From the NCBI GenBank assembly GCA_039621445.1, contig CP154954.1, positions 31,272,012 through 31,336,011 on the forward strand: a DNA stretch of 64,000 nucleotides. Reading direction: 5' to 3'. The notes under the pieces are model-generated. The model had not been told where the DNA came from and made no database searches. It worked only from the letters and a program-made list of their open reading frames with translations. This document shows positions 1 through 62,500 of this stretch, one piece after another. The stretch is from Euglena gracilis. Taxonomy: Eukaryota. The position numbers were made by a program, and so were the translations under genes. The number at the start of each line of letters is the position of its first letter. Within the stretch, counting starts at the first letter, position 1.

Positions 1-386
1 GTGTCCGCGAGGGACAACAAAGTCCAGGAGGGATCTTCATTTTGTCCAAAATTCCCTGCTAGGGGGTGTATGGGACGCGGGGGGGGGAGGACGGGGGGAG
101 ACGCCCCTTAGAGACCGAATTTTTTTCCATCGCCGAACAAGGTGCCTGCAAGGTGCAAAAAAATGTTTGTAGACAAAGGGCCAGTTGTGGATAGTCCTGG
201 TTTGGTTAGGAGTATGTACAAATACAGCAAGCGCGAGTAAGCGAGCGAACGCTTGAGCAAAGCTCAAGGTTGGGGGTTTGGGGAGTATAGGTTTATGTGT
301 GATGGTCTAGAGGACCAGTGTGAAAGGGAGAGGAGGGGAAAAAGAGAGGGGGGGGGGTGTGAGGGCACCGGCGTCAGGGTGAATTA

Positions 387-913
387 TCACGTAGATAAAA
401 GCATCCGGTCTGTGGCTCTTTCGGCCAGGCGCAGTTGGCGGGCAACTGCCCGGGCGAGTATGATAGATAGATTCTCTGTCAGTTCCTGGAGCCGGCGTTG
501 TTTGACAATGCCGGCGAAAGCGTTTGTAGCCATGTGGAGGATTTCACGGAGGAGCTTGGCAGCGGCAGGGCCAGGACAGCCCCACGGGTTGAAAGTCACA
601 CCGGAGTAAGTCCCACTGATGCCGCGAACATCTGTCCTCTGCCTGGTTCCTTTTATGCAGCTCAGCATCGGGCAAAGTGCGTGAGACACGGGTGAGATTC
701 AGAGGCCACTGGGAGGGGGGCCAGAGGGTGTTCGATGGAAACGTCTACGGCAAGGTGCCGTCCTTTGTTCCGGCCGAGCAGTGGGAGGTCGGCATCGCGA
801 GTGCCAGATTCGCAGCTCTGCTCCTTGCGAACAGAATCGCCTGCTCGCTGGCAGAGATCGACGATGGCGTCCCGGAGGCAGTTATGTCTTTCGGTGACGC
901 CGTTCTTGCGGCC
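387..913 (-). pseudogene. 3' fragment of a second CRE-like non-LTR element (restriction-like endonuclease domain), frameshifted
   Basis: Manual translation RKNGVTERHNCLRDAIVDLCQRAGDSVRKEQ...RDADL...LAVDVSIEHPLAP then ...FNPWGCPGPAA...LSIILARAVARQL aligns by eye with the C-terminus of ORF 1438-3018. Confidence 0.75.
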
Positions 914-1437
914 TAATGATTGTACCGGGTTTTCACCTTCCCCTTACATCCTCCATCACGGTGGGTAGCACAGCTTCACCCAAACCGTGCCCCGGGCCCA
1001 GGGAAACGTCTCTTTTGGCCCTCGCCACAAGAGGAACCCCCTTGTGACTCCCTGTGCCGCCACAGGTCGCGGGTAGCTTATACTGTGGGAGTAATGTACA
1101 AAAGAGTGTTGTCAGGGTGCGGAGGTTGGTTAGCGGAAGATGAGCAAAGGTCACCTTCAATAAATATTGGGCGGGGAGGGGGGCGTTTGTACCTCTTTTG
1201 CCACAGGATGGCGTGTTTGTGTCGGGTTTTTTGGCTTTTGTTGTGTTCTGCTTCTCTGCGCGTCTATGTGACCCATTGATTTGTCTTTGGCTCGGCGTGT
1301 GGCTCTGCTCAAGGGGTAACTAGGGGTTACTGAGTTGTGTCTTCTTTGCTCATTTTGTAATCTGACCTTGGGGTGCTAACATAGTAGGTGAGAGTTCAAG
1401 GTTGGTTATTTGGTTGAGAGTTTGTGCTCAAAGGCCT

Positions 1438-4400
1438 TCAGACAGAATATGGTGAGTGGGCGGAAGACAGGGTGATCTCATCTTTGGAAGAATACAAGCT
1501 CCAAACGAGCTGTCTACTGATTTCTCTGATAAGTGTGAAGGACAGGCCTTGCCAAATGTCTGCTTCTGCGGCCCGCCGTTGCCACCCTTCCCGCTGCCCC
1601 AGAAGGGCCTTGAGGAGGGTGGCCATCAAGGAGCGCGCTTCTTGTCCCATGCCCCCGTAGCAATCCATGACGAATGGCATCAACCGCCAGCCCAGTCGTT
1701 GGCATGTTGCATCATATTTGGTATGCTTTTCAGCCTCCTGACGTGTTTGCCATTGTGAAAGGCTCTCTGCACTTCGGAGCGGATGACTTTGCGCAAGGGT
1801 GTGGCGGATTGTCACATCCACTGCAACGGGTCCATCACTGTCCAAGCGAGGAATGAAGATGTCCCCAGGCCGGGAACGGTCATCAACTCGTTGTTCTTTA
1901 CGGGCTGTGAATCCTGCCTTCTGTGTTGTGGTTGTCAGAAAGTCTTGGACAGCCCCGTGCCGCCGGGTGATGAAGTTTGATTTGCAGCAAACGAGGTGGT
2001 GTCCGAGAAAGTCTGATGGTCCAAAGCATTTGGGACAGAGGTTGGGATCGGATTCCATTGGTGTGAGAGTCATTCCGAGGGACCAACGAAGTGTGCAGCG
2101 GAATTCAGCCGTGGGTAACAGGGTGCGCAGTCCTTGAGATGGTGTCAAAGCGGCCCACGCCATAGCATGCGGTTGGCATTGGCTTGCAAAACGTACAGCA
2201 GCAGGTCCATTCAATGTGTCCCGAAGTGTTTTCTGGCGGGCAAGCATGCCCTGCTGGTTCCACCAACGTTGTGAATTGTGTGGAGACTGTGCCTGAGGAA
2301 TCAGGTTTTTGTCACTGGCCCATTGTGGCAGTGGAGCCATTTGACCAAGTTCATTGAGGGCTGTCTGTAAACAATCGTCAGTGTCCTTGGGAAGGATGTC
2401 CATGGCAGCAGGCAGGCCCAAGACAGAGGGAGCTCTTCGACAAAAGTCCACCACTTGAGACAATCTGGCAGGCACACGTTGAAATAGTGGATCCGAGATC
2501 CCCAGTCCACGGCATCTGATGGCCAGGGAAACTTGCAGCCATTCTTCTGGGGTGCAAGGGGAGCCGACCATGCCACTGAATGTTTCCCGAATAATTCCCG
2601 ACAATGTCTTGCATGCCGCTGTTGCAGAGGAGATTTTACAGGCGCGCAAGAGGTCATTCACTTTGCAAGCGGGTAAGCAAAACCGAAGCAAGGTGAATTG
2701 CACATGCGATTGAGGTAGGTGCTGAAGTACTGTGCAAGAACGTCGGATGTCTTCAATGCGCTTATTCCAAACTTCTTCACAGAAGGGGTCATCTTGGGGG
2801 TGGTGGACAGGGACCCCTAAAACTTTCAGACCAAAACCAGCAACAAAGGCGGTCAGTGGTATTTGATGTAAGGGGCTATCCTGTGGCGTGCCAGGGGGAA
2901 TGCAAGGGGCACCTTCTGTTGATGTGAACGCTGGTCCCCACAATCGACATTTTGCAGGGTTCACGGCCAACCCAAGCGTGGCTGCCTCGCGAATTAGAAA
3001 TGCAAGGGCATTGTGCAATTGTGCTGGCTATCCCAGCAGATGGGCATCGTCCAAGTACCACCCCTGCCATTCAACCAAACGTGAGAGGCCCTCACAAAGG
3101 TCTTGCACACCCCAGGCGAAAGCTGCAGGTCCGCATGGGTCGCCTTGTTGAGCTCCCCTCTGGGAAGGCAGACAATGGTTTCCACAATACAACTTGCTGT
3201 GTTGGGCGTAGCACGAATCCAGCCAAGGGCACACTTCTGGGCATCGTCTACGGATGGATTGCAGGATTTTTTCCCGTGACAAGGAGTTGAAGGCATTCCT
3301 GAAATCCACTTGAAGCAGCCCCCAGCGATTGTCTCTGCCCGAATGCAGAGTGTCCACCATCTGTTGGATTCCCATTGCGATCAATGGACATGCATTCGGC
3401 ACACCAACGCCACATTGAGGAGGACTCAGTTCTTTCAAAGCGTTCACCACTGTGGGATGACGCACGAGGCATTTGCCAACCAATCGGCGGAGTGTTTCAC
3501 CTGCTGCGATCGGGCGAGTGTCTTCATCACACACCGTGTGCTCCACAAGGTTTCCAAAAGCATCCTCTTCCATTGCTGTTTGTTTGTTCTGTTTTCGCAG
3601 AGGTGTCAACCTGGCAGAGGAAAGAATTGGGGCCATGCCGGGGTGAACACCGTGTGTAATTGCCCGACAGATGAAGGTATCAAGCACTTCGAGGAGGTCA
3701 TCTCCACAAGCCCCCATAGCTGGCGTTTTTTTTTTTGTTTTTTTAAAAAAAAACGTTTTTTTTGTTTTTTATTAAAAAAAACGGGCAAAAAAAACGGCCA
3801 AAAAAACAAAGGGGAAAATGATGGTCCAAATTTTGCCTTTGATTGCAAGGGTGAACCAATCTTAGCTCAAATGACTTGAAAACCAATACTTTTGGTTGTC
3901 TTCAACAAGATGGTCAAAATAGGGCATTTTTCTGCAATTTTGGGATGTTTCAACTTGAAACATCCCAAATTTGGTGTCTTTCTCTGACCGAGGATGGGCA
4001 AAAAAAGCTAAAATTGAAGACAAAAACTTTTTTGCCCTGGACCCTCAATGGCGTTTTTTTGTTTTTTTTAAAATTTTAAAAAAACATGTTTTTTTAAAAA
4101 AAACGTGTTTTTTTTGACTTCGTTTTAAACGAAGTGCCAGCTATGCAAGCCCCTGGGTAGTCTCCAACCATGGCCTTGAGGTGGTCAGGTCTCAGGCCGG
4201 AAGGTCCCGGTGCGGATTCCTTTGGGAACCCGAATATAGCTTTGCGCAAATTTTGCAATCGCTCTTTTGTGCTTTCCGGAGGAAAGGTAATCGTTTGGGA
4301 AGGGTCGGCCACTGGGATGCGCAGTGGAGGCTCTGGTGGGTGAAGGTCACGCAGCCTTTGAATCACTTTTGGGTCATTGCTGTTCTGAACCCCCTCAGAG

Positions 4401-5345
4401 GTGAGCTCTCGGCATGCTTTTGAAATAGCCCCGTGGCCAACAAGGCTTTCAATGCGGGAGAGGAACCGTTCTTCAGTTGCCTAGGCTGCCAGTGCTGTTT
4501 TTTTGCCTTGTCTGTCTGCCTTGTGGCTTTTGTGGGAGACTGGAGTCCAACCAAGAATCAAATACAGGACGGGTGAGATACAAGCGAGCTCGTTCTGCAA
4601 TTTTCTCCCCACCATCGCCCAGTTCGATCGCCCGCCACGTTGCAAAGGACAAAGCACCGCTTTGGGGAAGGCCCACAAGGCGTGCAGGGTTTCCCAGCCA
4701 GGTTCCCTATTGAAATGCCTCAACAATTGCAGGTAGGTTTGATTGACATTGAGGAGGGCTCCACGCGGCAGGTATACAAGGGTGCCTGTCATCAAAAGAA
4801 ATTTCCTCAAAAGTGGGATGAAGGGATGGTGGGCATGGAGCAGAGAATGGCGTACCCCAGCAATGTGATTTTGGCCAATGGGGGTTGGTGGGGGTCTAGC
4901 TGGGGCTGGTGACGATGCTGCTGCGGTTGTTGCCACTAAGGATGAAGAGCTACCCAATGGGGGGTTGGAGAAGTTCAGGAAAGGCGTCGCCTGATTAGCT
5001 TGCATCCACATGGCCCCAACGTCTGACAGGGGGAAGGGTCCTGGTCCTTGTGTGCCAATTGGGTTCTCCATGATGACCGTGGAGCATATTGAGGGGAGGC
5101 CTTGTTGGCCAAAGAACAATGCACCCAGCAGATTTGGGAACCAAGATTCCCCCCTTTCCAAGGTGGTGCGGGTGTGGTGGTGTGTGATCGGGGGGTGAAA
5201 TTATTTAAATTGTGCTGCCTGGCGCCATGTCCAACGTCCTCACCCGACACCGACGGGGGGCTCTGCGGGTGGTGGTGCTGTAGGAGGGATGGAGATTTGT
5301 GATGCTGGCGCCATGTCAATATCCTCACCCGAAACAAATGGTGGG
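1438..5345 (-). pseudogene. Reverse transcriptase / RLE polyprotein (interrupted)
   Basis: SAPGPSGLRPDHL, RPIAAGETLRRLVGK, VDFRNAFN, QRGAQQGDP, WYLDD, CPKC..HHLVCC, RPGDIF..VAVDVT; in-frame TAG at 3028-3030, MITE at 3715-4145, frameshifts upstream. Confidence 0.9.
3715..4145. mobile_element. hAT-type MITE inserted in the CRE RT gene
   Basis: TIR CATAGCTGGC/GCCAGCTATG; perfect 8-bp TSD CAAGCCCC; removal restores DYPGACGDDLL. Confidence 0.9.
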
Positions 5346-5859
5346 TCTGTTTCGGGCACAACAAAATGGAAATTTGGGGGTAACAGCCGCCGAGACGCGC
5401 TCGCGCGAGGCCAAAAAAAAAAAAAAAAAAGCACAAGCACTTTGTGTTGTGTTGGTCAAAAAATGGCCCAAACAAATGGCAAAAATTGACCACTTTTTTG
5501 TTTTTTGGAACCCAAAAATCCTTCCGAGTTTGGAATGGTTCGCCTCCGCGCCGGAGGCCATAATACGGCACAAAAAGAAAAAAAAAAATATAAAAAAAAG
5601 AAAAAACCCGTATTTGTTAAATTGCTCCACCCGCGCGGCGCCCCGCGCGGCCGGCTCGCCCCCCCTCAGCCCCCCCCCCCCCCCCGCTGTGCTAGCCCCC
5701 TGTGTGCTGTCTTGTGCAGGAGTGAAGGCACAAGCATTTTTCTTTGTTTGGCCGACGTTGGGTGGTCTTTTCCGATCACCGGAGAGGGAACCTGGGGGTT
5801 GTCAAGTTCATTTTGCTGAAGTGGGAAGGTTGCAGGCCAGCAGAATGTGGCAGAACTGG

Positions 5860-6590
5860 CTGGCTGGGGGGCCATTGTTGCAGACCAAAAGGTGTATGTG
5901 CTGTCTGGCTGGGGGGCCACTGTTGCAGGCGAAAATGTGGAGGAACATGGTCGCCAGTTTGTCGGGGGCTTTTCTGGCTGAGAGCAAAAATGGTGTCAGG
6001 GGGGGCCTTTGCAGGCCCATGGCCTTTGCAGGCCACTGGGACAAAATGGTGCAACAGGACAAAAAGGTGTCACAGGGGGGCCTTTGCAGGCCCAGGGCCT
6101 TTGCAGGCCACTGGAGCAAAATGGTGTTGGAGGGGGGCCTTTGCAGGCCCAGGGCCTTTGCAGGCCACTGGGGCAAAATGGTGCAACAGACCGAAATGAT
6201 GTTACAGGGGGGCCTTTGCAGGCCCAGTGACTTTGCAGGACATTGGGGTAAAACAGTGTCACTGAGGGGTTGGGGTGGCAAAATGCTTTTCAATGTCAAG
6301 TCAAAACTGCTGCAAAAAGTGTCACTGAGGGGTTGGGGTGGCAAAATGTTTTTCAATGTCCAGCCAAAACTGCTGCAAAATGTGTCACAGCTTTTGGTGT
6401 AACATGTGCTGTGAAAACTGGGGTTTGCCACTTCAATTGATCACAGGTTTGGGATGCAATGCAGAACACAGAAAAGAAGACACTGGAGCTGAAAGTGGCA
6501 CCTAATGGTTGGCAGATGGGGGGCCTTTGCAGGCCCAATGGGGGGGGCCTTTGCAGGCCCAATGGGGGGGGCCTTTGCAGGCCCAATAGG
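5860..6590. repeat. GGGGGCCTTTGCAGGCCCA minisatellite in the CRE 5' region
   Basis: About ten copies of the CCTTTGCAGGCC core; also at 52870-53605. Confidence 0.85.
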
Positions 6591-6868
6591 AACCAGCAGG
6601 GCTGAAAAGCCCAGTAAGTCGAACTTCTGGGGCTGCAGATAAGGGCTGAGAAACCCACTTCAACTGGAGAACTTGTCCTCGAACTGCACTGCACCTTGGT
6701 CTCGGCTATGAACTTGAACTTGAACTTGAACCCTTTTTCTTTGAACTTGATACCAGTACTTGTTACTTGAATTGTTCTTGTAACTTGAACTGCCAGGGAC
6801 TTCACCTTGACCAGCACTTTTAACTTGAACCCCTCCAGGGGCTTTCACTTCTCGACCATGTGATATGT

Positions 6869-6894
6869 CGAAAAAAAATAGACACTCAGAAAGT
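6869..6894 (-). ncRNA. Euglena spliced-leader exon copy (relic, no GT donor)
   Basis: Reverse complement reads ACTTTCTGAGTGTCTATTTTTTTTCG, the 26-nt Euglena SL; followed by ACATATC. Confidence 0.85.
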
Positions 6895-7824
6895 TTTTGC
6901 GCATTAGGACTTCCCTGCCTATTGTCGGACCAGAATTCGCCCTCAGGTGACACCTCTGAACTGTGTGTGGGATCGACCGGAGACACCAAAAAAAAGTTTG
7001 AAATCCCACCCCCACCTCTTGTCTCAAGGATGCAAAAATCATCGCAGATTTTCCGAGAAAGGAGAAAATCTTTGTTTCTTCACACCAAGTGTCAATATGC
7101 CAATGGTCTCAATCAAAGATTTTCACCTGAACTTTGCGTCCAAGTGGATGCACATGGGTTGTGCCGCAAATGCTCCAACGCTCTGAACTGGCATGGCCAC
7201 AATCCATTCACCCTGTCTGCAGGCAACCAATGTCATCCCCTCAGTTTGATGATTTTTTGCCCCTTCCAAATTCCATTTACACTGAGCTTGAACTTCCAAC
7301 TGACTTGTGGACCAAGGCAGTCAAGCTCCTCCTTTATCATCCCAGTGGGTGTGTCCAGGTGGGGTGGTACGGTGAATCGCAAGGGAAGTAAGGGAAGGGA
7401 ATCGGCCAAACAGCCATCGACCCCTCCCACCTCCTCCCGTATTTTCGGGAGCACCAATTTTCGACCCCAAAATTTTTTCCCGGATTTGTTAAAAAAACCT
7501 GTGAAATTGCTGCAGTGGGGTGGGTCGACCCCCCCCCACGGATGGGGAGTCGACCCACCCAACAGGCCCTCCCGAACTGCCCCCCAATGATCCATGGGTT
7601 TTCATTCATTTGCGGTGGACAATGGGCACTCCTTTATCTGATGGTTCCATCAGACACGCAAATGTCATGCCCCCCCCCCCCCCGAGCTGTCCCCCCCCCT
7701 AGCATTGCGGCGAAAGAAATATTGAAATATTTCATGAAATTTCACAAATATATTTTCTTATCGGTGAAGGATTTAAAAACGTGTTCAGCCCGCCAAATGC
7801 CTGCCCTGAAATTCGTGGTCATGA

Positions 7825-38693: not shown

Positions 38694-38968
<275 letters not shown>

Positions 38969-41056: not shown

Positions 41057-42453
41057 AAACAGCAATGAGCCAACATTTCTGTTCCAAACCAAACTTTCTT
41101 ACGGGAGTGTTTTTCCTAAAATACCGAAGGAAGTAGTTTCCCCCTTTTCGTTTCAAAAAAGGACCATTTTTTAAGCCTCTTGGATGTCAAAGCACACAAA
41201 GACCAATGGTAAAAGCATTGACCTGTTTGATTGTAACCGTGAATAGAGGCCCGGCGCCAGCCCTGTTTTTCGTGGGTGTGAACACGGAAAACAGGGCATA
41301 TTTTCAATTCACGAAAATATGCCCTGTTTTTCGTGAATAGGTATTCACGAAAAACAGGGCATATTTTCGTGAATACGAATTTTACTGAAATGAACCCCAA
41401 AAACCTGTCAATCCCATCAATCGAAAGCTCTTCTCAAGGGCTTTTGACAGATGGCCACAGGATTCAGCAATAATGCACACGGCACTTATTTTCAGTGATC
41501 GTGTATTCCAAAATTCGACATCCTAATTTCTGAAATCCCACACCTCAGGTGCCATACGGCATATCAATCGAAAGCTCTCCCCATGAGCTTTCATTTGGTA
41601 CCCTCAGAACTCAGCCACACTGCACAGCGCCCTAAAAATTGCCGATCGCAATGTTCCGGCCCTTTTCGCAAATCCCAAAACCCACTGTTCACCTGCCATG
41701 TTTCCCCTTGATCGATGGCCCTTCTCAAGGGCTTTCAGCAGATGGCCTTAGATTCCAGCCGTGCTGCATGGTACTCTATTTCAGAAATTCCCCAAATTTG
41801 ACCAAATGGAAAGTGTTGCACAAAATACCCCAATTTCTGGCCAAATACCCCCCAAAAAACTGCTCAGATATGATTGCCACATGTCTAAAAACCATTTTGG
41901 ACACTTTTTGGCACTTTTCATTTTGGGTCCCCTGGACGCCGTCTTCCCGCCCGAACCAACCAGACAAGCGTTGGACGCCGGTTCGGGCGTGAAGCCAGAG
42001 CCCCAATACACGGTTTGGGGGTTGTGGCAACATTCGGTCCAGCGGTGTTTGTGGCTTTCTTCGCCATTTTTGCAAGAGCAGACCGAAGGACACCATTTCT
42101 ACAGACCTGTTTCTATTCACAAAAAACAGGGCATATTTTCAATTCACGAAAATATGCCCTGTTTTCCGTGAATAGGTATTCACGAAAAACAGGGCATATT
42201 TTCGTGAATAGGATTTTTGGGGAAAAAAATGGCAAAAAAATGCCCGAAAACCTGGCGTGAAGCACACCAACGAAAAACAGGGCAGGCGCCGGGCCTTTCT
42301 ATTCACGGTTACAGAAAAATCGTGGGCTATAACCCGTATTCAGGGCGTATAACGGGTCAAGGGCGCCTACGGCGCCCTTGACCCGTTACACGGCCTGAAT
42401 ACGGGTTATGCCCACGACTTTTATATAAAAAAAATCTGCCTATTGCTGTAGCC
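41057..42453 (+). other. Nonconventional intron of the hAT transposase (contains a nested element)
   Basis: C|AAA CAGCAAT...ATTGCTG TAGCC|AA; restores LRSQLGQARLNHLAL. Confidence 0.88.
41232..42313. mobile_element. Non-autonomous TIR element nested in the last transposase intron
   Basis: ~28-bp TIR TGTAACCGTGAATAGA..GGCCCGGCGCC; subterminal AAAACAGGGCATATTTTC repeats; no TSD seen. Confidence 0.75.
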
Positions 42454-46742: not shown

Positions 46743-47289
46743 CATAGAGGTCTGGTCTGCTCCTTGCAGTCTTTTCCATCCACTCAGAAAAACGCAACCA
46801 GTCTCACACAGAAGTGCCCACGGGGGCTCAACAAAAATGTCCATGCGGGCCTAAATTTCTCGTCCATTAGGATCAATAATTGTGTCCAGGGGGGTTCTCC
46901 GGAACGTGTCCGCGAGGGACAACAAAGTCCAGGAGGGATCTTCATTTTGTCCAAAATTCCCTGCTAGGGGGTGTATGGGACGCGGGGGGGGAGGACGGGG
47001 GGAGACGCCCCTTAGAGACCGAATTTTTTTCCATCGCCGAACAAGGTGCCTGCAAGGTGCAAAAAAATGTTTGTAGACAAAGGGCCAGTTGTGGATAGTC
47101 CTGGTTTGGTTAGGAGTATGTACAAATACAGCAAGCGCGAGTAAGCGAGCGAACGCTTGAGCAAAGCTCAAGGTTGGGGGTTTGGGGAGTATAGGTTTAT
47201 GTGTGATGGTCTAGAGGACCAGTGTGAAAGGGAGAGGAGGGGAAAAAGAGAGGGGGGGGGTGTGAGGGCACCGGCGTCAGGGTGAATTA

Positions 47290-47792
47290 TCACGTAGATA
47301 AAAGCATCCGGTCTGTGGCTCTTTCGGCCAGGCGCAGTTGGCGGGCAACTGCCCGGGCGAGTATGATATATAGATTCTCTGTCAGTTCCTGGAGCCGGCG
47401 TTGTTTGACAATGCCGGCGAAAGCGTTTGTAGCCATGTGGAGGATTTCACGGAGGAGCTTGGCAGCGGCAGGGCCAGGACAGCCCCACGGGTTGAAAGTC
47501 ACACCGGAGTAAGTCCCACTGATGCCGCGAACATCTGTCCTCTGCCTGGTTCCTTTTATGCAGCTCAGCATCGGGCAAAGTGCGTGAGACACGGGTGAGA
47601 TTCAGAGGCCACTGGGAGGGGGGCCAGAGGGTGTTCGATGGAAACGTCTACGGCAAGGTGCCGTCCTTTGTTCCGGCCGAGCAGTGGGAGGTCGGCAAAC
47701 TCCTTGCGAACAGAATCGCCTGCTCGCTGGCAGAGATCGACGATGGCGTCCCGGAGGCAGTTATGTCTTTCGGTGACGCCGTTCTTGCGGCC
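47290..47792 (-). pseudogene. Second CRE-like RLE fragment, copy B
   Basis: As 387-913, with a short deletion near 47697. Confidence 0.7.
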
Positions 47793-50593
47793 TAATGATT
47801 GTACCGGGTTTTCACCTTCCCCTTACATCCTCCATCACGGTGGGTAGCACAGCTTCACCCAAACCGTGCCCCGGGCCCAGGGAAACGTCTCTTTTGGCCC
47901 TCGCCACAAGAGGAACCCCCTTGTGACTCCCTGTGCCGCCACAGGTCGCGGGTAGCTTATACTGTGGGAGTAATGTACAAAAGAGTGTTGTCAGGGTGCG
48001 GAGGTTGGTTAGCGGAAGATGAGCAAAGGTCACCTTCAATAAATATTGGGCGGGGAGGGGGGCGTTTGTACCTCTTTTGCCACAGGATGGCGTGTTTGTG
48101 TCGGGTTTTTTGGCTTTTGTTGTGTTCTGCTTCTCTGCGCGTCTATGTGACCCATTGATTTGTCTTTGGCTCGGCGTGTGGCTCTGCTCAAGGGGTAACT
48201 AGGGGTTACTGAGTTGTGTCTTCTTTGCTCATTTTGTAATCTGACCTTGGGGTGCTAACATAGTAGGTGAGAGTTCAAGGTTGGTTATTTGGCTGAGAGT
48301 TTGTGCTCAAAGGCCTTCAGACAGAATATGGTGAGTGGGCGGAAGACAGGGTGATCTCATCTTTGGAAGAATACAAGCTCCAAACGAGCTGTCTACTGAT
48401 TTCTCTGATAAGTGTGAAGGACAGGCCTTGCCAAATGTTTGCTTCTGCGGCCCGCCGTTGCCACCCTTCCCGCTGCCCCAGAAGGGCCTTGAGGAGGGTG
48501 GCCATCAAGGAGCGCGCTTCTTGTCCCATGCCCCCGTAGCAATCCATGACGAATGGCATCAACCGCCAGCCCAGTCGTTGGCATGTTGCATCATATTTGG
48601 TATGCTTTTCAGCCTCCTGACGTGTTTGCCATTGTGAAAGGCTCTCTGCACTTCGGAGCGGATGACTTTGCGCAAGGGTGTGGCGGATTGTCACATCCAC
48701 TGCAACGGGTCCATCACTGTCCAAGCGAGGAATGAAGATGTCCCCAGGCCGGGAACGGTCATCAACTCGTTGTTCTTTACGGGCTGTAAATCCTGCCTTC
48801 TGTGTTGTGGTTGTCAGAAAGTCTTGGACAGCCCCGTGCCGCCGGGTGATGAAGTTTGATTTGCAGCAAACGAGGTGGTGTCCGAGAAAGTCTGATGGTC
48901 CAAAGCATTTGGGACAGAGGTTGGGATCGGATTCCATTGGTGTGAGAGTCATTCCGAGGGACCAACAAAGTGTGCAGCGGAATTCAGCCGTGGGTAACAG
49001 GGTGCGCAGTCCTTGAGATGGTGTCAAAGCGGCCCACGCCATAGCATGCGGTTGGCATTGGCTTGCAAAACGTACAGCAGCAGGTCCATTCAATGTGTCC
49101 CGAAGTGTTTTCTGGCGGGCAAGCATGCCCTGCTGGTTCCACCAACGTTGTGAATTGTGTGGAGACTGTGCCTGAGGAATCAGGTTTTTGTCACTGGCCC
49201 ATTGTGGCAGTGGAGCCATTTGACCAAGTTCATTGAGGGCTGTCTGTAAACAATCGTCAGTGTCCTTGGGAAGGATGTCCATGGCAGCAGGCAGGCCCAA
49301 GACAGAGGGAGCTCTTCGACAAAAGTCCACCACTTGAGACAATCTGGCAGGCACACGTTGAAATAGTGGATCCGAGATCCCCAGTCCACGGCATCTGATG
49401 GCCAGGGAAACTTGCAGCCATTCTTCTGGGGTGCAAGGGGAGCCGACCATGCCACTGAATGTTTCCCGAATAATTCCCGACAATGTCTTGCATGCCGCTG
49501 TTGCAGAGGAGATTTTACAGGCGCGCAAGAGGTCATTCACTTTGCAAGCGGGTAAGCAAAACCGAAGCAAGGTGAATTGCACATGCGATTGAGGTAGGTG
49601 CTGAAGTACTGTGCAAGAACGTCGGATGTCTTCAATGCGCTTATTCCAAACTTCTTCACAGAAGGGGTCATCTTGGGGGTGGTGGACAGGGACCCCTAAA
49701 ACTTTCAGACCAAAACCAGCAACAAAGGCGGTCAGTGGTATTTGATGTAAGGGGCTATCCTGTGGCGTGCCAGGGGGAATGCAAGGGGCACCTTCTGTTG
49801 ATGTGAACGCTGGTCCCCACAATCGACATTTTGCAGGGTTCACGGCCAACCCAAGCGTGGCTGCCTCGCGAATTAGAAATGCAAGGGCATTGTGCAATTG
49901 TGCTGGCTATCCCAGCAGATGGGCATCGTCCAAGTACCACCCCTGCCATTCAACCAAACGTGAGAGGCCCTCACAAAGGTCTTGCACACCCCAGGCGAAA
50001 GCTGCAGGTCCGCATGGGTCGCCTTGTTGAGCTCCCCTCTGGGAAGGCAGACAATGGTTTCCACAATACAGCTTGCTGTGTTGGGCGTAGCACGAATCCA
50101 GCCAAGGGCACACTTCTGGGCATCGTCTACGGATGGATTGCAGGATTTTTTCCCGTGACAAGGAGTTGAAGGCATTCCTGAAATCCACTTGAAGCAGCCC
50201 CCAGCGATTGTCTCTGCCCGAATGCAGAGTGTCCACCATCTGTTGGATTCCCATTGCGATCAATGGACATGCATTCGGCACACCAACGCCACATTGAGGA
50301 GGACTCAGTTCTTTCAAAGCGTTCACCACTGTGGGATGACGCACGAGGCATTTGCCAACCAATCGGCGGAGTGTTTCACCTGCTGCGATCGGGCGAGTGT
50401 CTTCATCACACACCGTGTGCTCCACAAGGTTTCCAAAAGCATCCTCTTCCATTGCTGTTTGTTTGTTCTGTTTTCGCAGAGGTGTCAACCTGGCAGAGGA
50501 AAGAATTGGGGCCATGCCGGGGTGAACACCGTGTGTAATTGCCCGACAGATGAAGGTATCAAGCACTTCGAGGAGGTCATCTCCACAAGCCCC

Positions 50594-51026
50594 CATAGCT
50601 GGCGTTTTTTTTTGTTTTTTTTTAAAAAAAACGTTTTTTTTGTTTTTTATTAAAAAAAACGGGCAAAAAAAAACGGCCAAAAAAACAAAGGGGAAAATGA
50701 TGGTCCAAATTTTGCCTTTGATTGCAAGGGTGAACCAATCTTAGCTCAAATGACTTGAAAACCAATACTTTTGGTTGTCTTCAACAAGATGGTCAAAATA
50801 GGGCATTTTTCTGCAATTTTGGGATGTTTCAACTTGAAACATCCCAAATTTGGTGTCTTTCTCTGACCGAGGATGGGCAAAAAAAGCTAAAATTGAAGAC
50901 AAAAACTTTTTTGCCCTGGACCCTCAATGGCGTTTTTTTGTTTTTTTTAAAATTTTAAAAAAACATGTTTTTTTTTAAAAAAAACGTGTTTTTTTTGACT
51001 TCGTTTTAAACGAAGTGCCAGCTATG
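50594..51026. mobile_element. hAT-type MITE in the CRE RT gene, copy B
   Basis: TIR CATAGCTGGC; TSD CAAGCCCC. Confidence 0.9.
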
Positions 51027-52307
51027 CAAGCCCCTGGGTAGTCTCCAACCATGGCCTTGAGGTGGTCAGGTCTCAGGCCGGAAGGTCCCGGTGCGGATTC
51101 CTTTAGGAACCCGAATATAGCTTTGCGCAAATTTTGCAATCGCTCTTTTGTGCTTTCCGGAGGAAAGGTAATCGTTTGGGAAGGGTCGGCCACTGGGATG
51201 CGCAGTGGAGGCTCTGGTGGGTGAAGGTCACGCAGCCTTTGAATCACTTTTGGGTCATTGCTGTTCTGAACCCCCTCAGAGGTGAGCTCTCGGCATGCTT
51301 TTGAAATAGCCCCGTGGCCAACAAGGCTTTCAATGCGGGAGAGGAACCGTTCTTCAGTTGCCTAGGCTGCCAGTGCTGTTTTTTTGCCTTGTCTGTCTGC
51401 CTTGTGGCTTTTGTGGGAGACTGGAGTCCAACCAAGAATCAAATACAGGACGGGTGAGATACAAGCGAGCTCGTTCTGCAATTTTCTCCCCACCATCGCC
51501 CAGTTCGATCGCCCGCCACGTTGCAAAGGACAAAGCACCGCTTTGGGGAAGGCCCACAAGGCGTGCAGGGTTTCCCAGCCAGGTTCCCTATTGAAATGCC
51601 TCAACAATTGCAGGTAGGTTTGATTGACATTGAGGAGGGCTCCACGCGGCAGGTATACAAGGGTGCCTGTCATCAAAAGAAATTTCCTCAAAAGTGGGAT
51701 GAAGGGATGGTGGGCATGGAGCAGAGAATGGCGTACCCCAGCAATGTGATTTTGGCCAATGGGGGTTGGTGGGGGTCTAGCTGGGGCTGGTGACGATGCT
51801 GCTGCGGTTGTTGCCACTAAGGATGAAGAGCTACCCAATGGGGGGTTGGAGAAGTTCAGGAAAGGCGTCGCCTGATTAGCTTGCATCCACATGGCCCCAA
51901 CGTCTGACAGGGGGAAGGGTCCTGGTCCTTGTGTGCCAATTGGGTTCTCCATGATGACCGTGGAGCATATTGAGGGGAGGCCTTGTTGGCCAAAGAACAA
52001 TGCACCCAGCAGATTTGGGAACCAAGATCCCCTTTCCAATGGTGGCACTGCGGGTGGTGGTGTGGTCGGGGGGATGGAAATTTGTGATGCTGGCGCCATG
52101 TCAACGTCCTCACCCGACACCGACGGGGGCTCTGCGGGTGGTGGTGCTGTAGGAGGGATGGAGATTTGTGATGCTGGCGCCATGTCAATATCCTCACCCG
52201 AAACAAATGGTGGGTCTGTAGGAGGTCCGGGGTTACTTTCAATGTCCCCACAGGACAGTAAAGACCGACCTCGTCCTGCTCCCCCCGATGCTGCCAGGGT
52301 AGGCTGT

Positions 52308-52715
52308 GGAGGCTAGGCGCGCCGCTCGGGGGGGTCCGGGGCTTTGCGCGGGTGTGGCCGTGCGCGGGGGACCCTGGGGGTTGTCCCCCCGTCCATGTGC
52401 CTAGCATAGCCAAGAAAAAAAAAAATTGGTGAAAAATCGCGACTTTTTTGAGGCCCAAAAATGACCATGACCATTTCGGACACAAAATGGCAAATTTGGG
52501 GGCCGCGCGCTCTGCAGGCCAAAGCACTTTTTGGTCAAAAATGGCCCATGGCCAAAATGACCATTTTTGGACCCAAAAATCCCCGATAGGGGGGTGCGGG
52601 GGGGGCTGGCTGCGGGGGCCTTTGCACCCCCTCCCCCCCTCCCGGTGGCGCGGCCGGTCCGGGGCCGCTCGCCCCCCCCTCCGCCCCCCCCCCCCCCCCG
52701 CTGTGCCTAGCCTCC
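52308..52715. mobile_element. Harbinger-like MITE in the CRE leader
   Basis: TIR GGAGGCTAGGC/GCCTAGCCTCC; 3-bp TSD TGT; removal gives AKDSTQPTLAASG. Confidence 0.85.
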
Positions 52716-53883
52716 TGTGTGCTGTCTTTTGCAGGAGTGCAAGGCACAAGCATTTTTCTTTGTTTGGCCGACGTTGGGTGGTCTTTTCCGATCACCGGAG
52801 AGGGAACCTGGGGGTTGTCAAGTTCATTTTGCTGAAGTGGGAAGGTTGCAGGCCAGCAGAATGTGGCAGAACTGGCTGGCTGGGGGGCCATTGTTGCAGA
52901 CCAAAAGGTGTATGTGCTGTCTGGCTGGGGGGCCACTGTTGCAGGCGAAAATGTGGAGGAACATGGTCGCCAGTTTGTCGGGGGCTTTTCTGGCTGAGAG
53001 CAAAAATGGTGTCAGGGGGGCCTTTGCAGGCCCATGGCCTTTGCAGGCCACTGGGACAAAATGGTGCAACAGGACAAAAAGGTGTCACAGGGGGGCCTTT
53101 GCAGGCCCAGGGCCTTTGCAGGCCACTGGAGCAAAATGGTGTTGGAGGGGGGCCTTTGCAGGCCCAGGGCCTTTGCAGGCCACTGGGGCAAAATGGTGCA
53201 ACAGACCGAAATGATGTTACAGGGGGGCCTTTGCAGGCCCAGTGACTTTGCAGGACATTGGGGTAAAACAGTGTCACTGAGGGGTTGGGGGCAAAATGCT
53301 TTTCAATGTCAAGTCAAAACTGCTGCAAAAAGTGTCACTGAGGGGTTGGGGTGGCAAAATGTTTTTCAATGTCCAGCCAAAACTGCTGCAAAATGTGTCA
53401 CAGCTTTTGGTGTAACATGTGCTGTGAAAACTGGGGTTTGCCACTTCAATTGATCACAGGTTTGGGATGCAATGCAGAACACAGAAAAGAAGACACTGGA
53501 GCTGAAAGTGGCACCTAATGGTTGGCAGATGGGGGGGCCTTTGCAGGCCCAATGGGGGGGGCCTTTGCAGGCCCAATGGGGGGGGGCCTTTGCAGGCCCA
53601 ATAGGAACCAGCAGGGCTGAAAAGCCCAGTAAGTCGAACTTCTGGGGCTGCAGATAAGGGCTGAGAAACCCACTTCAACTGGAGAACTTGTCCTCGAACT
53701 GCACTGCACCTTGGTCTCGGCTATGAACTTGAACTTGAACTTGAACCCTTTTTCTTTGAACTTGATACCAGTACTTGTTACTTGAATTGTTCTTGTAACT
53801 TGAACTGCCAGGGACTTCACCTTGACCAGCACTTTTAACTTGAACCCCTCCAGGGGCTTTCACTTCTCGACCATGTGATATGT

Positions 53884-53909
53884 CGAAAAAAAATAGACAC
53901 TCAGAAAGT
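53884..53909 (-). ncRNA. Euglena spliced-leader exon copy (relic)
   Basis: Exact 26-nt SL. Confidence 0.85.
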
Positions 53910-55083
53910 TTTTGCGCATTAGGACTTCCCTGCCTATTGTCGGACCAGAATTCGCCCTCAGGTGACACCTCTGAACTGTGTGTGGGATCGACCGGAGACA
54001 CACAAAAAAAGTTTGAAATCCCACCCCCACCTCTTGTCTCAAGGATGCAAAAATCATCGCAGATTTTCCGAGAAAGGAGAAAATCTTTGTTTCTTCACAC
54101 CAAGTGTCAATATGCCAATGGTCTCAATCAAAGATTTTCACCTGAACTTTGCGTCCAAGTGGATGCACATGGGTTGTGCCGCAAATGCTCCAACGCTCTG
54201 AACTGGCATGGCCACAATCCATTCACCCTGTCTGCAGGCAACCAATGTCATCCCCTCAGTTTGATGATTTTTTGCCCCTTCCAAATTCCATTTACACTGA
54301 GCTTACTTGGTACCCTAACCGTTGCACGCCAGACCGAGGAGACGTCGCGATCGTCGGACGGCCAGAATCTGAGTCGAAAATTTGTCGCCATTTTCAGGAT
54401 TTTTGATTGTGTATTAAGAGGCTTAATAAACCTTACAAGAAAGTTTTCCTCTAGAATCAACGGACCTGAGGGCCTTGGGGGGGCACCAGAGTGGTGAAAA
54501 TTATGATTCCCCACTGACCGAAAAACAAGACCCCAGGCGGACGATGGTGAGTTGGGTGGTGATCGCCCGTGTCTGAGAGAAGAGGCTTTGCTTTCATCGA
54601 GGGGTATTTATACATGGACGATTGACACAGAGCCAGAAATACCCTCGCGATAGCCGGAATTTTGGTGAAGTGCAAAGTGGTATGTGTGTGGACATTGCAG
54701 TGTAATGGTCGAGATTGGTCATGGGAGTGTCCTTGGCCAGAGGGGTGGGACGCCGGTTCTGGTCATGAGCCCGGCGTCTCTAAAACGCCGGACTTAACCT
54801 TAAACAAAGATGTCTCGGACGCCGGTTCTGTCCAAAGCCCGGCGTTCCAAACGCCGGTTCCGTCCTTCGGACGGAACCGGCGTTTGGAACGCCGGACTTT
54901 GGACAGAACCGGCGTCCGAGACCTCTTTTTTGTAGTAAAGGCATCTGTGTTCAGGCACGTTTTCCATTAGGGCATCTGTGGCAACCCCGAGCAAGAAGCA
55001 AAAATCGCTGTCATGAAAAAACGGCGTGCGGTTGAGAGGCCGGGTGGTCCTCAACGGGTGAGGCGGGGCGGGGGCACTCTAAC

Positions 55084-55834: not shown

Positions 55835-58318
55835 TTTTGCGCATTAGGACTTCCCTGCCTATTGTCGGACCCTACGATCCCTGATCGCCAGATCCGCGAC
55901 AGTAAATTAGGTATTGGCACTGTCCATCCCCTGTTCTGCAGTGTATTTTTCACGAAAGGAAGTACACCAATATGGGGGGGGGGGGTGGTACACCAAGCAC
56001 TGGAATACGTTTGGAAAGGTTATCTTGAAGTTGAAGAATTGGTGATACCATTCATGAACACCTGGAGCCGATGATCAAGTTGGAAGTTCAAGTTCCAAAA
56101 CAAAAAACCTGCTGTCCAGTTCGAGATCAGAACACTACTAGCTGGCTGTTTGACTTGCAGACGAAATTTGACAAGAAGATGATGATCCTTAAATTGGTTC
56201 TGCTGCTGTTCACCTTCACCAGCTCTTGGCAGGTGAATTCCCCCTCTCCCTCTCTCCCCTCCTGCCCCCCCTCCTGTCACTGCACTCCCTGGGCCAGTGT
56301 TGTCCTTACACGTTTTACAGTGTTGTACTTACAGTGTTGTACTTACCTTGCTTTTCCTTCCCCCAACAAAATCATTTTACAGCACATCCACACCCAGCGA
56401 CCCAACATTCACCCACAAATCTTTCATCATCCAAATTTCTCCCCCACACCCCCCTTCCCCATTTCACTGCCAAATGCCCCCCTCCTTTCACTTCCACATC
56501 TGGGACATTCCTCCACCACTACCAGTGGAATCTTACCAACCACTGTTGCAAAAAATCTCCCCTTCCCATTTTCACACCTTCCCCCCCAACATTCCTGCGC
56601 CATTTGCCATACCCATCCCCTTGTCCCATGTGTTCCCCCGGGGACCTTGGGTACACTTTCTCCCCATTCCTCCCAAACCCAAAAATTTTTCTGGGGTTCT
56701 CCTTCCCTAAACACCACCACATGGCAAACATGGGCCTCTCTGGTTCTGACTGCAAAAAAGACAAACCCCACACACCTCCCTGAACCTTTCCAGGCAAAGC
56801 CCTACACTTTCCCGAACAAAAAATGGATTCTTCTCTGCGGTGACATTCAGCCCAACCCCGGGCCAGTGTCTTCAGCCAACTGCCCTTTTCCAACACCTAT
56901 CCGCCGGCAACTGACACCTTGGGCGTGGTCACGAGGCACCTGGGACGTCTTCCCCCGGCAGGACAAGTACCAGCCCACAACCTTGGTGCACTGTCCACCC
57001 TCACATGGGACAACCTGGCGCTTCCCCTCGGCCTACGCTGCTGCCCGGCCGCACCAACCCCCCGCACGCAATCATGGCTGCTCACCCCTTCAACAACTCT
57101 TCCCTTCCAAGGTATCTAGGCCCGCCGCCCCCTCTCCCCGAATGACATTTGGCCTACCACCGCACTCACTACCCCAGCCGGCTGCATCCCCACGGACGTC
57201 TACCCTTCGCCGCCTCTCGAAAAGTCAAGAAGACGAGAACGACCATCCACCCTCCCGCAATACACTGTGGGGCCTAGCCGGTCGTTTGTCAAAGCTTAAC
57301 CTCCCCCATCCAATATCCAGGAAGTGTATGTACCATATACTCCGGATCATGTTCAATGTCCTCCTAGATCTCCAAACAGCATCGCTTCTGCACCTTACCA
57401 TGGGTCGCCTTATCTCTCTCCTCCTCTCCGTCCTCTCCCTCAACTGGCTTCTTATACTCACCCTGAAATATTACAACAATGCCACCTGTGCTCCCCCCTC
57501 ACAAGAACTTGCAGAACGCGGGCTTGGACAACGCGGCTCCTATCCCATCCCGACCCATATTTGGGACACTGTTGTCCCCCCCAGCCTCATCCACACCCTC
57601 CGCTACCATTCACCACCACCATCTCTTCAGCGACGCCCCTCCCCACTCACTTTTGTCCTTCTCCACTCTTTGGCACGGGACAAGTTCCTTCTTCCCCTGC
57701 CAATATCTTCGGGGGACTTCCACCCCTCCTCCAACATGGCGTCTTTTATCCACCCCAAAAATAGCAGTAAAGTCAGCTTTATTGCCGATTTGCGCTGGGC
57801 GAACGCATTCTCCAACCCTCCACCCTTCCACCTCCCCTCCCTTCCCCAAATCTCCCACACCATTTCCAAATTTCCCCCTGGCACACTGTGGGCTGCCACC
57901 ATCGACCTCACCAATTTCTTTTGGAGTCTCGAACTTCCTCCTTCCGCCAAGCACGCCTTCCGCACCTCCTCCTTCTACTTCCCTTGCCTTCCCTTCGGGT
58001 GGAACATCCCCCATACTAGCCCAACTTACCCTTCAAGACCTTATCAAGCAGGCTGTTTCCTCCCTCCCTTCGACGTACACCAACGGAACACACTTCTTCA
58101 TCTTCACCTACTGTGACGACATTCTCGTCCTTGCCCCATCGTACTCCCTCTGCAACCTCGTGACCGGCACCATCACATCTACCCTTCTCTCAAATAACCT
58201 CCTCATCTCCCCCAAATCCTCCCTTGTGCCGACACAAGAAATCACTTGGCTAGGCAAGGTCTTCAACCTTTGCAACCGGACCATCCAAAACACCCTTCCC
58301 ACATCCCAAAGGGCTCTT

Positions 58319-59591: not shown

Positions 59592-62500
59592 GCAAATCCC
59601 TTGTGAAACCCAACTGATTTGGGGGGCAAAACCCTTTTGTTGCTCAACTGTTCGAGGGCCCCAAAATAACAAAATCCCTTGTGTTACCCACCCGTTTTGG
59701 GGTCCAAAACCTTTGGTTGACCAACTGGGTCGAGGGCCCCCACGGTAAAGGTCCCCAAAGGTCGCTATGGTCGACCCCCCCCGAGGCTGTGGGGTGGGTG
59801 GCGACCCTAGAAACCCTTGTGGGCCGACCCTAGGGTCGACTTAGGGTCGGCCCACACCACACACCACCTCCCCCCCCCCCTACAACCCTAGGGTCGACTT
59901 AGGGTCCCCCACCCTCCCACCCCCCCCAAAAAAAAAAAAGGAAATTTTCGGGCAAACCCTTTGTTGCCCAACTGTTCGAGGGCCCCAAAATAACAAAATC
60001 CCTTGTGTTACCCACCCGTTTTGGGGGCAAATCCCTTTTGTTGCCCAACTGTTCGAGGGCCCCAAAATAACAAAATCCCTTGTGTTACCCACCCGTTTTG
60101 GGGGCAAATCCCTTTTGTTGCCCAACTGTTCGAGGGCCCCAAAATAACAAAATCCCTTGTGTTACCCACCCGTTTTGGGGGGCAAATCCCTTGTGAAACC
60201 CAACAGATTTGGGGGGGCAAAAAACTTTTGTTGCCCAACTGTTCGAGGGCCCCAAAATAACAAAATCCCTTGTGTTACCCACCCGTTTTGGGGGCAAATC
60301 CCTTGTGTTGCCCAACTGTTCGAGGGCCCCAAAATAACAAAATCCCTTGTGTTACCCACCCGTTTTGAGGGGCAAATCCCTTGTGAAACCCAACTGATTT
60401 GGGGGGCAAAACCCTTTTGTTGCCCAACTGTTCGAAAGCCCCAAAATAACAAAATCCCTTGTGTTACCCACCCGTTTTGGGGGCAAATCCCTTTTGTTGC
60501 CCAACTGTTCGAGGGCCCCAAACTACAATCCCTTGTGTAACCAAGCTGATTTGGGGGGCAAATCCCTTTGTTACCCAACTGTTCGAGGGTCCCAAAATAA
60601 CAAAATCCCTTGTGTTACCCACCCGTTTTGGGGGGCAAATCCCTTTTGTTGCCCAACTGTTCGAGGGCCCCAAAATAACAAAATCCCTTGTGTTACCCAC
60701 CCGTTTTGGGGGCAAATCCCTTTTGTTGCCCAACTGTTCGAGGGCCCAAAATAACAAAATCCCTTGTGTTACCCACCGTTTTGGGGGGGAAAATCCCTTT
60801 TGTTGCCCAACTGTTCGAGGGCAAAACCCCCTGTGTTACCCCGTTTTTGGGGGGCAAATCCCTTGTGTACCCAACTGATTTGGGGGGCAAAACCCTTTTG
60901 TTGCCCAACTGTTCGAGGGGCCCCAAAATAACAAAACCCTTGTGTTACCCACCCATTTCGGGGGACAAATCCCTTTTGTTGCCAAACTGTTCGAGGGCCC
61001 CAAAATAACAAAATCCCTTGTGTTACCCACCCGTTTTGGAAGCAAATCCCTTGTGAAACCCAACTGATTTGGGGGGCAAAACCCTTTTGTTGCCCAACTG
61101 TTCGAGGGTCCCAAAATAACAAAATCCCTTGTGTTACCCACCCGTTTTGGTGGCAAATCCCTTTTGTTGCCCAACTGTTCGAGGGCCCCAAAATAACAAA
61201 ATCCCTTGTGTTACCCACCCGTTTTGGTGGCAAATCCCTTTTGTTGCCCAACTGTTCGAGGGCCCCAAAATAACAAAATCCCTTGTGTTACCCACCCGTT
61301 TTGGGGGAAAAATCCTTGTTTTTCCCAACTTTTAGAAGGAACCAAAATAACAAAATCCATTGTGTTACCCACCCATTTCGGGGGACAAATCCCTTTTGTT
61401 GCCCAACTGTTCGAGGGCCCCAAAATAACAAAATCCCTTGTGTTACCCACCCGTTTTGAGGGGCAAATCCCTTGTGAAACCCAACTGATTTGGGGGGCAA
61501 AACCCTTTTGTTGCCCAACTGTTCGAGGGTCCCAAAATAACAAAATCCCTTGTGTTACCCACCCGTTTTGAGGGGCAAATCCCTTTTGTTGCCCAACTGT
61601 TCGAGGGCCCCAAAATAACAAAATCCCTTGTGTTACCCACCCGTTTTGGGGGCAAATCCCTTGTGTTCCCCAAATGTTCGAGGGCCCCAAAATAACAAAA
61701 TCCCTTGTGTTACCCACCCATTTCGGGGGCCAAATCCCTTTTGTTGCCCAACTGTTCGAGGGCCCCAAAATAACAAAATCCCTTGTGTTACCCACCCGTT
61801 TTGTGGGCAAATCCCTTGTGTTCCCCAACTGTTCGAGGGCCCCAAAATAACAAAATCCCTTGTGTTACCCACCCATTTCGGGGGACAAATCCCTTTTGTT
61901 GCCCAACTGTTCGAGGGCCCCAAAATAACAAAATCCCTTGTGTTACCCGGCAAATCCCTTGTGAAACCCAACTGATTTGGGGGGCAAAACCCTTTTGTTG
62001 CCCAACTGTTCGCGGGCCCCAAAATAACAAAATCCCTTGTGTTACCCACCCGATTGGGGGATCAAATCCCTTTTGTTGCCCAACTGTTCGAGGGCCCCAA
62101 AATAACAAAATCCCTTGTGGTACCCACGGTTTGAGGCAACCACTCCTTGTGAACCCAACTGATTTGGGGGGCAAATCCCTTTTGTGCCCCAATGTTCGAG
62201 GGCCCCAAATAACAAAATCCCTTGTGTTACCCACCACTTTGGGGGGCAAATCCCTTGTTGCCCAAACTGTTCGAGGGCCCCAAAATAACAAATCCCTTGT
62301 GTTACCCACCCGTTTTGGTGGCAAATCCCTTTTGTTGCCCAACTGTTCGAGGGCCCCAAAATAACAAAATCCCTTGTGTTACCCACCCGTTTCTGTTCGA
62401 GGGCCCCAAAATAACAAATCCCTTGTGTTACCCACCCGTTTTGGGGGCAAAACCCTGTTGTTGCCCAACTGTTCGAGGGTCCCAAAATAACAAAATCCCT

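Follow-up and report, generated by a model that had tools for sequence, protein, structure and literature searches.

Structure of the retrotransposon at the locus

The 64,000-nucleotide stretch of Euglena gracilis DNA analysed here (GenBank assembly GCA_039621445.1, contig CP154954.1, forward-strand positions 31,272,012 to 31,336,011), called the window below, carries on its minus strand a retrotransposon that lacks long terminal repeats (non-LTR) and whose open reading frame (ORF) contains a sequence of the 2A, or StopGo, type near its N-terminus. Two insertions resembling miniature inverted-repeat transposable elements (MITE-like insertions) interrupt the element. When both are skipped, a single frame links a leader, the 2A motif, an N-terminal domain, a reverse transcriptase (RT), a CCHC knuckle, and a restriction-like endonuclease (RLE). 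This joined frame extends over 53011..48320 (−) and comprises 99 plus 1182 codons. With two in-frame TAGs (51364-51362 and 49909-49907), several indels, and the two later MITE-like insertions, the copy is a dead relic.

Upstream of the first insertion, the leader frame occupies 52715..53011 (−) as 99 codons that follow a TGA at 53014-53012, and it continues past the insertion at 52277-52303. Its first ATG lies at 52891, from which 85 residues lead to the 2A glycine; at its maximum the leader consists of 99 codons plus 26, and it is of low complexity. The 2A coding stretch (52223..52276, −) is followed by a region at 51027..52222 (−) that begins with a Pro-rich stretch, in which 84 bp are tandemly duplicated (52044-52201), and goes on to a conserved N-terminal domain (approximately 51047-51700) located by tblastn using the relatives P0002, P0125, and P0117 (fetched proteins are denoted by P numbers). 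The RT fingers and palm were assigned to 49910..50585 (−), which has a YLDD motif near 49930; Pfam RVT_1 matched at approximately 49925-50398 in a scan of the window frames (E 6.2e-08, 33 bits versus a cut-off of 29.6). An open 529-codon frame (48320..49906, −; stop TGA 48319-48317) then encodes the RT thumb, a linker, the CCHC knuckle (48863-48916, −), and a PD-(D/E)xK restriction-like endonuclease (48605-48751, −), which reads RPGD...VDVT...E..K and holds an E-K-H-T-K-Y motif.

Residues C331, C334, H344, C348, R386, D389, D404, and K434 are invariant across the 23 family members aligned. The profile of this family matched R2 proteins best (9nl3_A, 5e-23), with L1 ORF2p found only at 1e-4, and it also ranked R2 ahead of group II and retron RTs. 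A second stretch of the profile, weak alone (i-E 0.14), aligned the CCHC and PD..D..K residues with the R2 motifs. The 529 residues of the window were modelled by AlphaFold with a mean pLDDT of 90.8, and the top seven Foldseek matches of this model were all R2 retrotransposon proteins (E 8.8e-09 to 1e-05, approximately 500 columns, 11–14% identity). Pfam scans of the window frames and of 23 relatives detected no apurinic/apyrimidinic endonuclease (APE; Exo_endo_phos) family. Because of the CCHC and PD..D..K motifs, the profile and fold matches to R2, and the lack of an APE in these scans, the element is assigned, from sequence and predicted fold, to the RLE-type non-LTR retrotransposons with R2-like architecture. 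The RLE type, with CRE as the putative clade, had already been named in an earlier interpretation made from the DNA letters alone (hereafter, the sequence-only reading). A PDB search with the single sequence P0002 yielded nothing at E ≤ 1, and an ESM Atlas search with it yielded only unnamed RVT_1 clusters.

The R2 proteins that gave the best profile and fold matches (9nl3, 9dou, 8gh6, 9nl2, and 8ibw) share the order RT, thumb/linker, CCHC, and RLE with the window element. The element differs from them in its low identity in the fold alignments and in that the N-terminal zinc finger/Myb of R2 is not seen in the window copy. To our knowledge, no 2A is known in R2. An Rfam scan of the window gave no family at gathering score, including spliced-leader RNA and rRNA genes. 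Insertion into a spliced-leader RNA gene marks the trypanosomatid members of CRE, not the CRE clade (CRE1/2, SLACS, and CZAR) as a whole.

The StopGo motif

At 52276-52223, the minus strand encodes GRGRSLLSCGDIESNPG↓P, where the arrow indicates the predicted break between Gly (52228-52226) and Pro (52225-52223); the context reads AASGGAGRGRSLLSCGDIESNPGPPTDPP and, over a longer span, PTLAASGGAGRGRSLLSCGDIESNPGPPTDPPFVSGE. The residues D-I-E-S-N-P-G-P take up 52246-52223 (−). The sequence-only reading had placed a D(V/I)ExNPG↓P motif on the minus strand at 52223..52261, in frame with the downstream coding region. We read LLSCGDIESNPGP at exactly 52261-52223 (−), and one frame does continue from there to the RT and endonuclease. 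The features of a class A 2A were found: the C-terminal D(V/I)ExNPG↓P is present as DIESNPGP, a Leu-rich stretch with G-D lies upstream within approximately 18–25 residues as GRGRSLLSCGD, and the long frame remains coding from the Pro into the RT and RLE. The pattern of the relatives, G-R-G-x-S-L-L-S/T-C-G-D-V/I-E-x-N-P-G-P, was built on 65 NPGP sites in 28 of 129 fetched proteins, all of them unnamed or "hypothetical"; 56 of these sites are strict and 48 are preceded by GRG, while P0007 has at least one that does not resemble a 2A. The window peptide matches this pattern at all 18 residues and carries the commonest residue at the conserved positions (V or I at one place).

An eight-residue motif might arise by chance in repetitive Pro/Gly-rich sequence, and bare NPGP does occur 6 times in this G+C- and Pro-rich window versus approximately 1.05 expected. 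Against this, strict D(V/I)ExNPGP appeared in none of 200 shuffles of the window, which were mononucleotide and not dinucleotide-preserving, and a six-frame reading of the 64 kb contains it a single time. The fit of every residue to the pattern of the relatives likewise speaks against chance. The 2As of the relatives moreover hold the same position relative to the RT, and such homologous sites practically refute chance, an origin to which we give next to no credence. On these sequence comparisons, the window site is a genuine, inherited, predicted StopGo site of an RLE-type non-LTR family.

A second 2A-like site, KKWILLCGDIQPNPGP, with Gln for the usual Glu, was observed at 56830-56865 (+), with a duplicate at 9809-9844 (+). 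The frame around it, 693 codons long (56035-58113), continues into an RT-like region (RVT_1 E 4e-5, below the cut-off), and the duplicate shows DLTNFF, LPFGW, and YCDD. This site belongs to a retroelement other than the RLE one. A homologue search with the 56035-58113 ORF gave no match at E ≤ 0.001 among proteins of the lengths covered.

Insertions, duplication, and other copies of the element

The first MITE-like insertion (52304..52714) is 411 bp long including a 5-bp target duplication (CTGTG on the plus strand) and has 10-bp inverted ends, GAGGCTAGGC. The second (50586..51026) is 441 bp long including an 8-bp target duplication (CAAGCCCC on the plus strand), with 10-bp inverted ends, CATAGCTGGC. 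Each length is divisible by three, and both insertions show inverted ends, a target duplication, and empty sites in other copies. Excision of the 411 bp yields ...AKDSTQ↓PTLAASGG.... The sequence-only reading had joined the leader to the 2A by removing a MITE at 52308-52715; the frame is kept and the junction is as it was written, whereas the limits were 3–4 nt off and the length is 411 bp rather than 408. The minus-strand ends of the first insertion (GA..AG) also led us to consider an intron, which is unnecessary as the insertion-free joined form is also present in DNA runs.

Other genomic copies were examined by aligning Logan contigs to positions 47800-53400; the contigs came from two DNA runs (X1 and X2), one probable RNA run (X17), and a metatranscriptome. 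With 43,128 contigs from a single run aligning to the element, the family is extremely abundant. A joint free of the first insertion, 52303->52715, with 5 letters common to both sides, was found in X1 (2 contigs), X2 (2), and X17 (1; 75 letters on the shorter side), and a joint free of the second, 50585->51027, in X1 (3), X2 (5), and X17 (1). Nearly all other copies have T at 51364 (+), which turns the TAG into a lysine codon, and T at 52255 (+), which changes Ser to Thr and gives LLTCGD and the motif LLTCGDIESNPGP. The latter is the sole change within the motif among the best-supported differences listed; 222 more lie beyond that list, so that minor motif variants are possible. Single-base indels relative to most other copies are located at 51379, 51481, 51668/9, and 51734.

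These contigs bear on the possibility that the 2A-bearing 5′ region is a different element, or a virus-derived fragment, that abuts the RT-RLE through chimerism or nested insertion. The locus is indeed a mosaic, with its two insertions, a 3′ fragment of another RLE element, and 5′ tandem repeats, and the last 13 residues of its 2A are identical to those of a viral 2A. In other copies, however, contigs span the leader through the 2A, the DNA-run depth over the leader is approximately that over the 2A region, and the depth is even across the junctions. Because contigs join 52303 directly to 52715, the leader is contiguous with the 2A in these copies, which removes the concern of the sequence-only reading that the 5′ region might come from a different element. 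Relatives from other sources also have the same order of 2A, N-terminal domain, RT, and RLE in single ORFs, and P0125, P0117, and P0027 align colinearly by tblastn to the 2A, N-terminal domain, and RT of the window. We therefore consider a composite origin very improbable.

A second copy of the locus is located at 96..6985 (−) as part of an approximately 47-kb duplication in the window, which also pairs 9833 with 56854. Positions 96-6985 and 47000-54000 are 98.7–99% identical with many small indels, and the duplication may be segmental or an assembly artefact. Directly 5′ of the leader, tandem repeats with units of 57–132 bp and the core GGCCTTTGCAGGCC extend over 52998..53401. The DNA-run depth stays high over them and the repeat number differs between copies; they may represent a 5′ untranslated region or flank. 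They do not recur 3′ of the element, and the window holds one independent element copy. The stretch at 47335-47822 (−; RHN..RD...VDVS), which adjoins the element on its 3′ side, is a fragment of a different member of this RLE family and matches P0002 829-898 and P0129 1587-1753.

Conservation of the 2A in relatives

A search with the RT-RLE of the window, in which the TAG was set to X, gave 85 proteins, unnamed or "hypothetical" and mostly on contigs of 3–4 kb. One of them, P0027, has a 2A (RGRGSLLTCGDVESNPGP) that lies 75 residues past the start of the ORF and precedes the RT; most of the other 84 start too near the RT to show whether one is present. The 316-residue frame starting at the 2A gave 35 matches in an exhaustive search of representatives. 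Among the 22 that match the N-terminal domain, six have a 2A at 50–150 residues upstream (P0089, P0091, P0095 in part, P0099, P0103, and P0104) and 13 begin less than 60 residues before the domain. In twelve further matches the aligned part is the 2A stretch, and 11 of these proteins have two to five sites each. With residues 1-520 of P0117 as the query, 11 long proteins of 857–2004 residues were obtained, all of which have one to four sites upstream of the RT; at least five (P0117, P0120, P0124, P0125, and P0129) combine 2A(s), YxDD, and RPxD..D in one ORF. P0125, which has three 2As, is 52.6% identical to the RT-RLE of the window over 763 residues. Across these relatives, the 2A motif is invariant while RT identity drops to approximately 30%, which argues for selection on the motif.

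The relationships were further examined with a FastTree phylogeny of the region from the RT to the C-terminus, a quick and unrooted tree that covers 71 of 97 proteins plus the window; 26 were left out as their RT was unrecognisable or incomplete. The window falls in a 100-supported group with P0001, P0002, P0005, P0006, and P0125, and a single 29-row set (support 97) contains all nine 2A-bearing rows. The 2A label requires 4 changes on this tree, a number as low being reached in 0 of 500 shuffles. On these sequences the tree shows a clustering of the 2A rows, not the number of gains. Conservation of the motif, which the sequence-only reading had proposed to check in intact family copies, is documented in relatives by P0027, by the N-terminal-domain matches, by the long proteins, and by this tree.

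Several environmental relatives (P0098, P0102, P0105, and P0110-P0129) have up to five GRGxxLLSCGDVExNPGP sites per ORF. An alternative 2A flavour, W-x-x-D-L...DGDVExNPGP, was observed in P0129 and P0089. In a metagenome-contig relative of 23% identity (L050), a second ORF at 3211-4728 (+), directly 3′ of the RT-RLE ORF, has a motif at 3997 (...FIDLMHDIETNPGP); this ORF may mark where a tandemly inserted element begins.

The 2As of the relatives set off additional modules. A partial match to Pfam Dam (PF05869; profile approximately 30-78, with NPPF) was found in ten relatives (P0104, P0105, P0117, and P0120-P0126), and it exceeds the gathering score of 28.1 bits in four, P0104 (33.9), P0121 (35.8), P0122 (28.7), and P0126 (29.4). 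All ten have at least one 2A downstream of the Dam-like module, between the module and the RT where an RT is present, and in six the module is flanked by a 2A on both sides. The first module of P0125 gave a sub-threshold match to an SLBP-type RNA-binding domain.

Comparison with known 2A-bearing systems

An N-terminal 2A of non-LTR retrotransposons, L1Tc/Ingi and others, was reportedly described by Heras in 2006. The D(V/I)ExNPG↓P sequence causes peptide-bond skipping, and N-terminal 2As are known from L1Tc/Ingi and other APE-type non-LTR elements (PMC3708506, PMC3894237). The available portions of these two papers (Odon 2013 and "Lost in translation", respectively) confine 2A to the APE type and depict the REL-endo type with one ORF, mentioning no 2A for it. 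According to the portion available of a 2026 preprint, ORF2p-like proteins with 2A-like peptides occur "mostly" with APE and also in Dualen/RandI (bioRxiv 10.64898/2026.06.17.732966). Another reports approximately 580 RT-bearing contigs with predicted 2As, mostly "non-LTR-like" and with sites spread along the ORFs, in a section that contains no endonuclease typing (bioRxiv 10.64898/2026.09.24.754024). The sequence-only reading had described 2A as known from APE-bearing non-LTR elements (L1Tc/ingi, CR1, and L2). This agrees with the literature searched, which, in the portions available, places it in APE-type elements, in Dualen/RandI, and in untyped RT contigs, and not explicitly in RLE-only elements. 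A search combining "2A-like" and "restriction-like endonuclease" returned no paper, though supplementary tables, which it did not cover, may list such proteins. The RLE association and the Dam-like module bracketed by 2As look unreported, yet they are not unforeseeable.

L1Tc/Ingi, Rex1, Crack, L2, and CR1 likewise have a canonical 2A in the N-terminal part of a long RT ORF, often with no ORF1, and the roles proposed for it, as far as the available text goes, are separation from upstream sequence and down-regulation of RT (PMC3708506). In contrast to these elements, in which an APE lies N-terminal of the RT, the window element has no APE and instead a C-terminal CCHC and PD-(D/E)xK, and its relatives have up to five 2As per ORF. 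The Dualen/RandI elements of Haematococcus also combine an RLE with 2A-like sequences ahead of enzymatic domains, some with extra N-terminal modules; as described in the part of the preprint available, they have an APE as well, and their modules are deubiquitinases and pentatricopeptide repeats (bioRxiv 10.64898/2026.06.17.732966), whereas the window element and 23 relatives have no APE and the module of the relatives is Dam-like. Dam domains have been reported in DIRS and LTR (Ty3/Gypsy-like) elements (bioRxiv 10.64898/2026.05.21.726589; PMC5890265, both seen in excerpt), with which the relatives share the PF05869-like NPPF module. Unlike those of DIRS and Ty3/Gypsy, the Dam-like module here resides in the ORFs of RLE-type non-LTR elements, where 2As delimit it, and it was not found in the window copy. 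Kinship with SymbioLINE was considered and rejected, as SymbioLINE elements are APE-type.

The family pattern GRG-x-LL-T/S-CGDVE-x-NPGP closely resembles T2A, a widely used viral class A 2A peptide. When the six motif variants of the family were searched in the literature, only the viral 13-mer was found in print, in one paper. This 13-mer forms the last 13 residues of the second 2A (2A2) of Wenzhou picorna-like virus 48 (WP-LV48), which are identical to those of the window, while the residues further upstream differ and the host is an RNA virus rather than a retrotransposon. In the virus, 2A2 sits in an unusual region downstream of 3CD (PMC11512398, available portion).

Interpretation of the StopGo site

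Our preferred reading, to which we assign a probability of roughly 0.7, is that the motif would be the family's own StopGo site, located close to the N-terminus of the one long ORF that an RLE-type non-LTR retrotransposon encodes. A ribosome would start in the short leader and synthesise the leader up to ...GDIESNPG, the leader-2A would be released at the Gly without a stop codon, and translation would resume at the Pro to make an RT-CCHC-endonuclease protein free of upstream sequence, probably in a lower amount. The site would be an inheritance from a clade whose members have one ORF split by one to five 2As into separate products, including a Dam-like methyltransferase-like module.

Several observations weigh against this reading. 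The leader is unlike those of the relatives outside the GRG...NPGP stretch and is without recognisable function. The duplicate copy at 96-6985 lacks the 2A, one deletion having taken the motif and part of the first insertion; because of this deletion, the window supplies one observation of the 2A and not two. Conservation within the family may merely mirror recent amplification. Three of the 22 matches to the N-terminal domain extend 89–152 residues upstream with no 2A, and in P0002 and P0006, the nearest relatives, the protein as called starts at a Met approximately 40 residues before that domain and shows no 2A, although both may be cut short. Zinc-finger N-termini without a 2A occur inside the 29-row set of the tree, in the subclade P0013-P0017 and others, plus P0011. 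Among the 80 distant metagenome-contig loci listed (22–35% identity), a relaxed 2A-like motif was found in one, in another ORF. Finally, WP-LV48 2A2 gave in vitro an abundant upstream product, no downstream product, and no fusion (PMC11512398, portion available), so that release at the window site may lack an efficient restart.

The last point leads to a variant in which the site is a brake or vestige: the upstream modules would have been lost and the last 2A kept, where it ends or attenuates RT translation with no useful upstream product. The WP-LV48 result with the identical 13-mer favours it, as do the shortness and low complexity of the leader, in which the scan of the window frames detected no Pfam family, and the failure of tblastn with P0117, P0104, P0105, and P0125 to detect a Dam-like or other upstream module in the window. 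Down-regulation has also been proposed, in the text available, for the N-terminal 2As of single-ORF non-LTR elements (PMC3894237), and most retrotransposon 2A-like peptides lower protein abundance according to the available part of a 2026 preprint (bioRxiv 10.64898/2026.06.17.732966). On the other hand, the motif is intact among the listed differences of a very large family and in relatives at approximately 30% RT identity, and longer full-length copies may carry upstream modules. Braking and separation are, moreover, compatible, which makes this a variant of the separating StopGo site rather than a true alternative; taken by itself, we judge it rather unlikely.

The proposal of the sequence-only reading that the 2A would release an ORF1-like protein is not supported for the window element, the leader being only approximately 85–125 residues long, of low complexity, and without a Pfam family. 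Release of upstream products appears to hold in spirit for the relatives, whose 2As are predicted to set apart upstream modules including the Dam-like methyltransferase-like domain. We tentatively speculate, as a possibility less likely than the StopGo site itself, that in an RLE-type lineage the ORF became a polycistron punctuated by StopGo, with one to five 2As releasing accessory proteins ahead of the RT-endonuclease (Dam-like adenine-methyltransferase-like and possibly RNA-binding), and that the hyper-abundant family of the window is a stripped-down descendant keeping the last site. If true, such a polycistron would offer a different solution from the ORF1/ORF2 one of APE-type long interspersed nuclear elements, and the near-identity to the 2As of insect and picorna-like viruses would point to an exchange of 2A cassettes between retroelements and RNA viruses.

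In cellular genomes, 2A has so far been associated with non-LTR elements of the APE type, and depictions of the "ancient" RLE-type elements show plain single ORFs. The present family suggests that StopGo is broader in retrotransposons, and its splitting of polyproteins more virus-like, than in the classic picture, and that 2As may offer single-ORF elements a route to gain accessory proteins. The relatives supply dozens of natural 2A variants and bear on the origin of viral 2As. Because the window copy is dead, this value lies in the family and not in the locus.

Other sequences in the window

Two further features were observed apart from the element. At 38467-41171 (+), three consecutive frames with DUF4371 matches below the cut-off and a GQGYDGASNM motif look like hAT-type transposase remnants, as judged from these motifs. 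From approximately 59700 to 64000, a long satellite-like array of diverged repeats extends on both strands with recurring open frames (…QNPLCYPPVLG…PTVRGPQNNKIPCVTHPFWG…).

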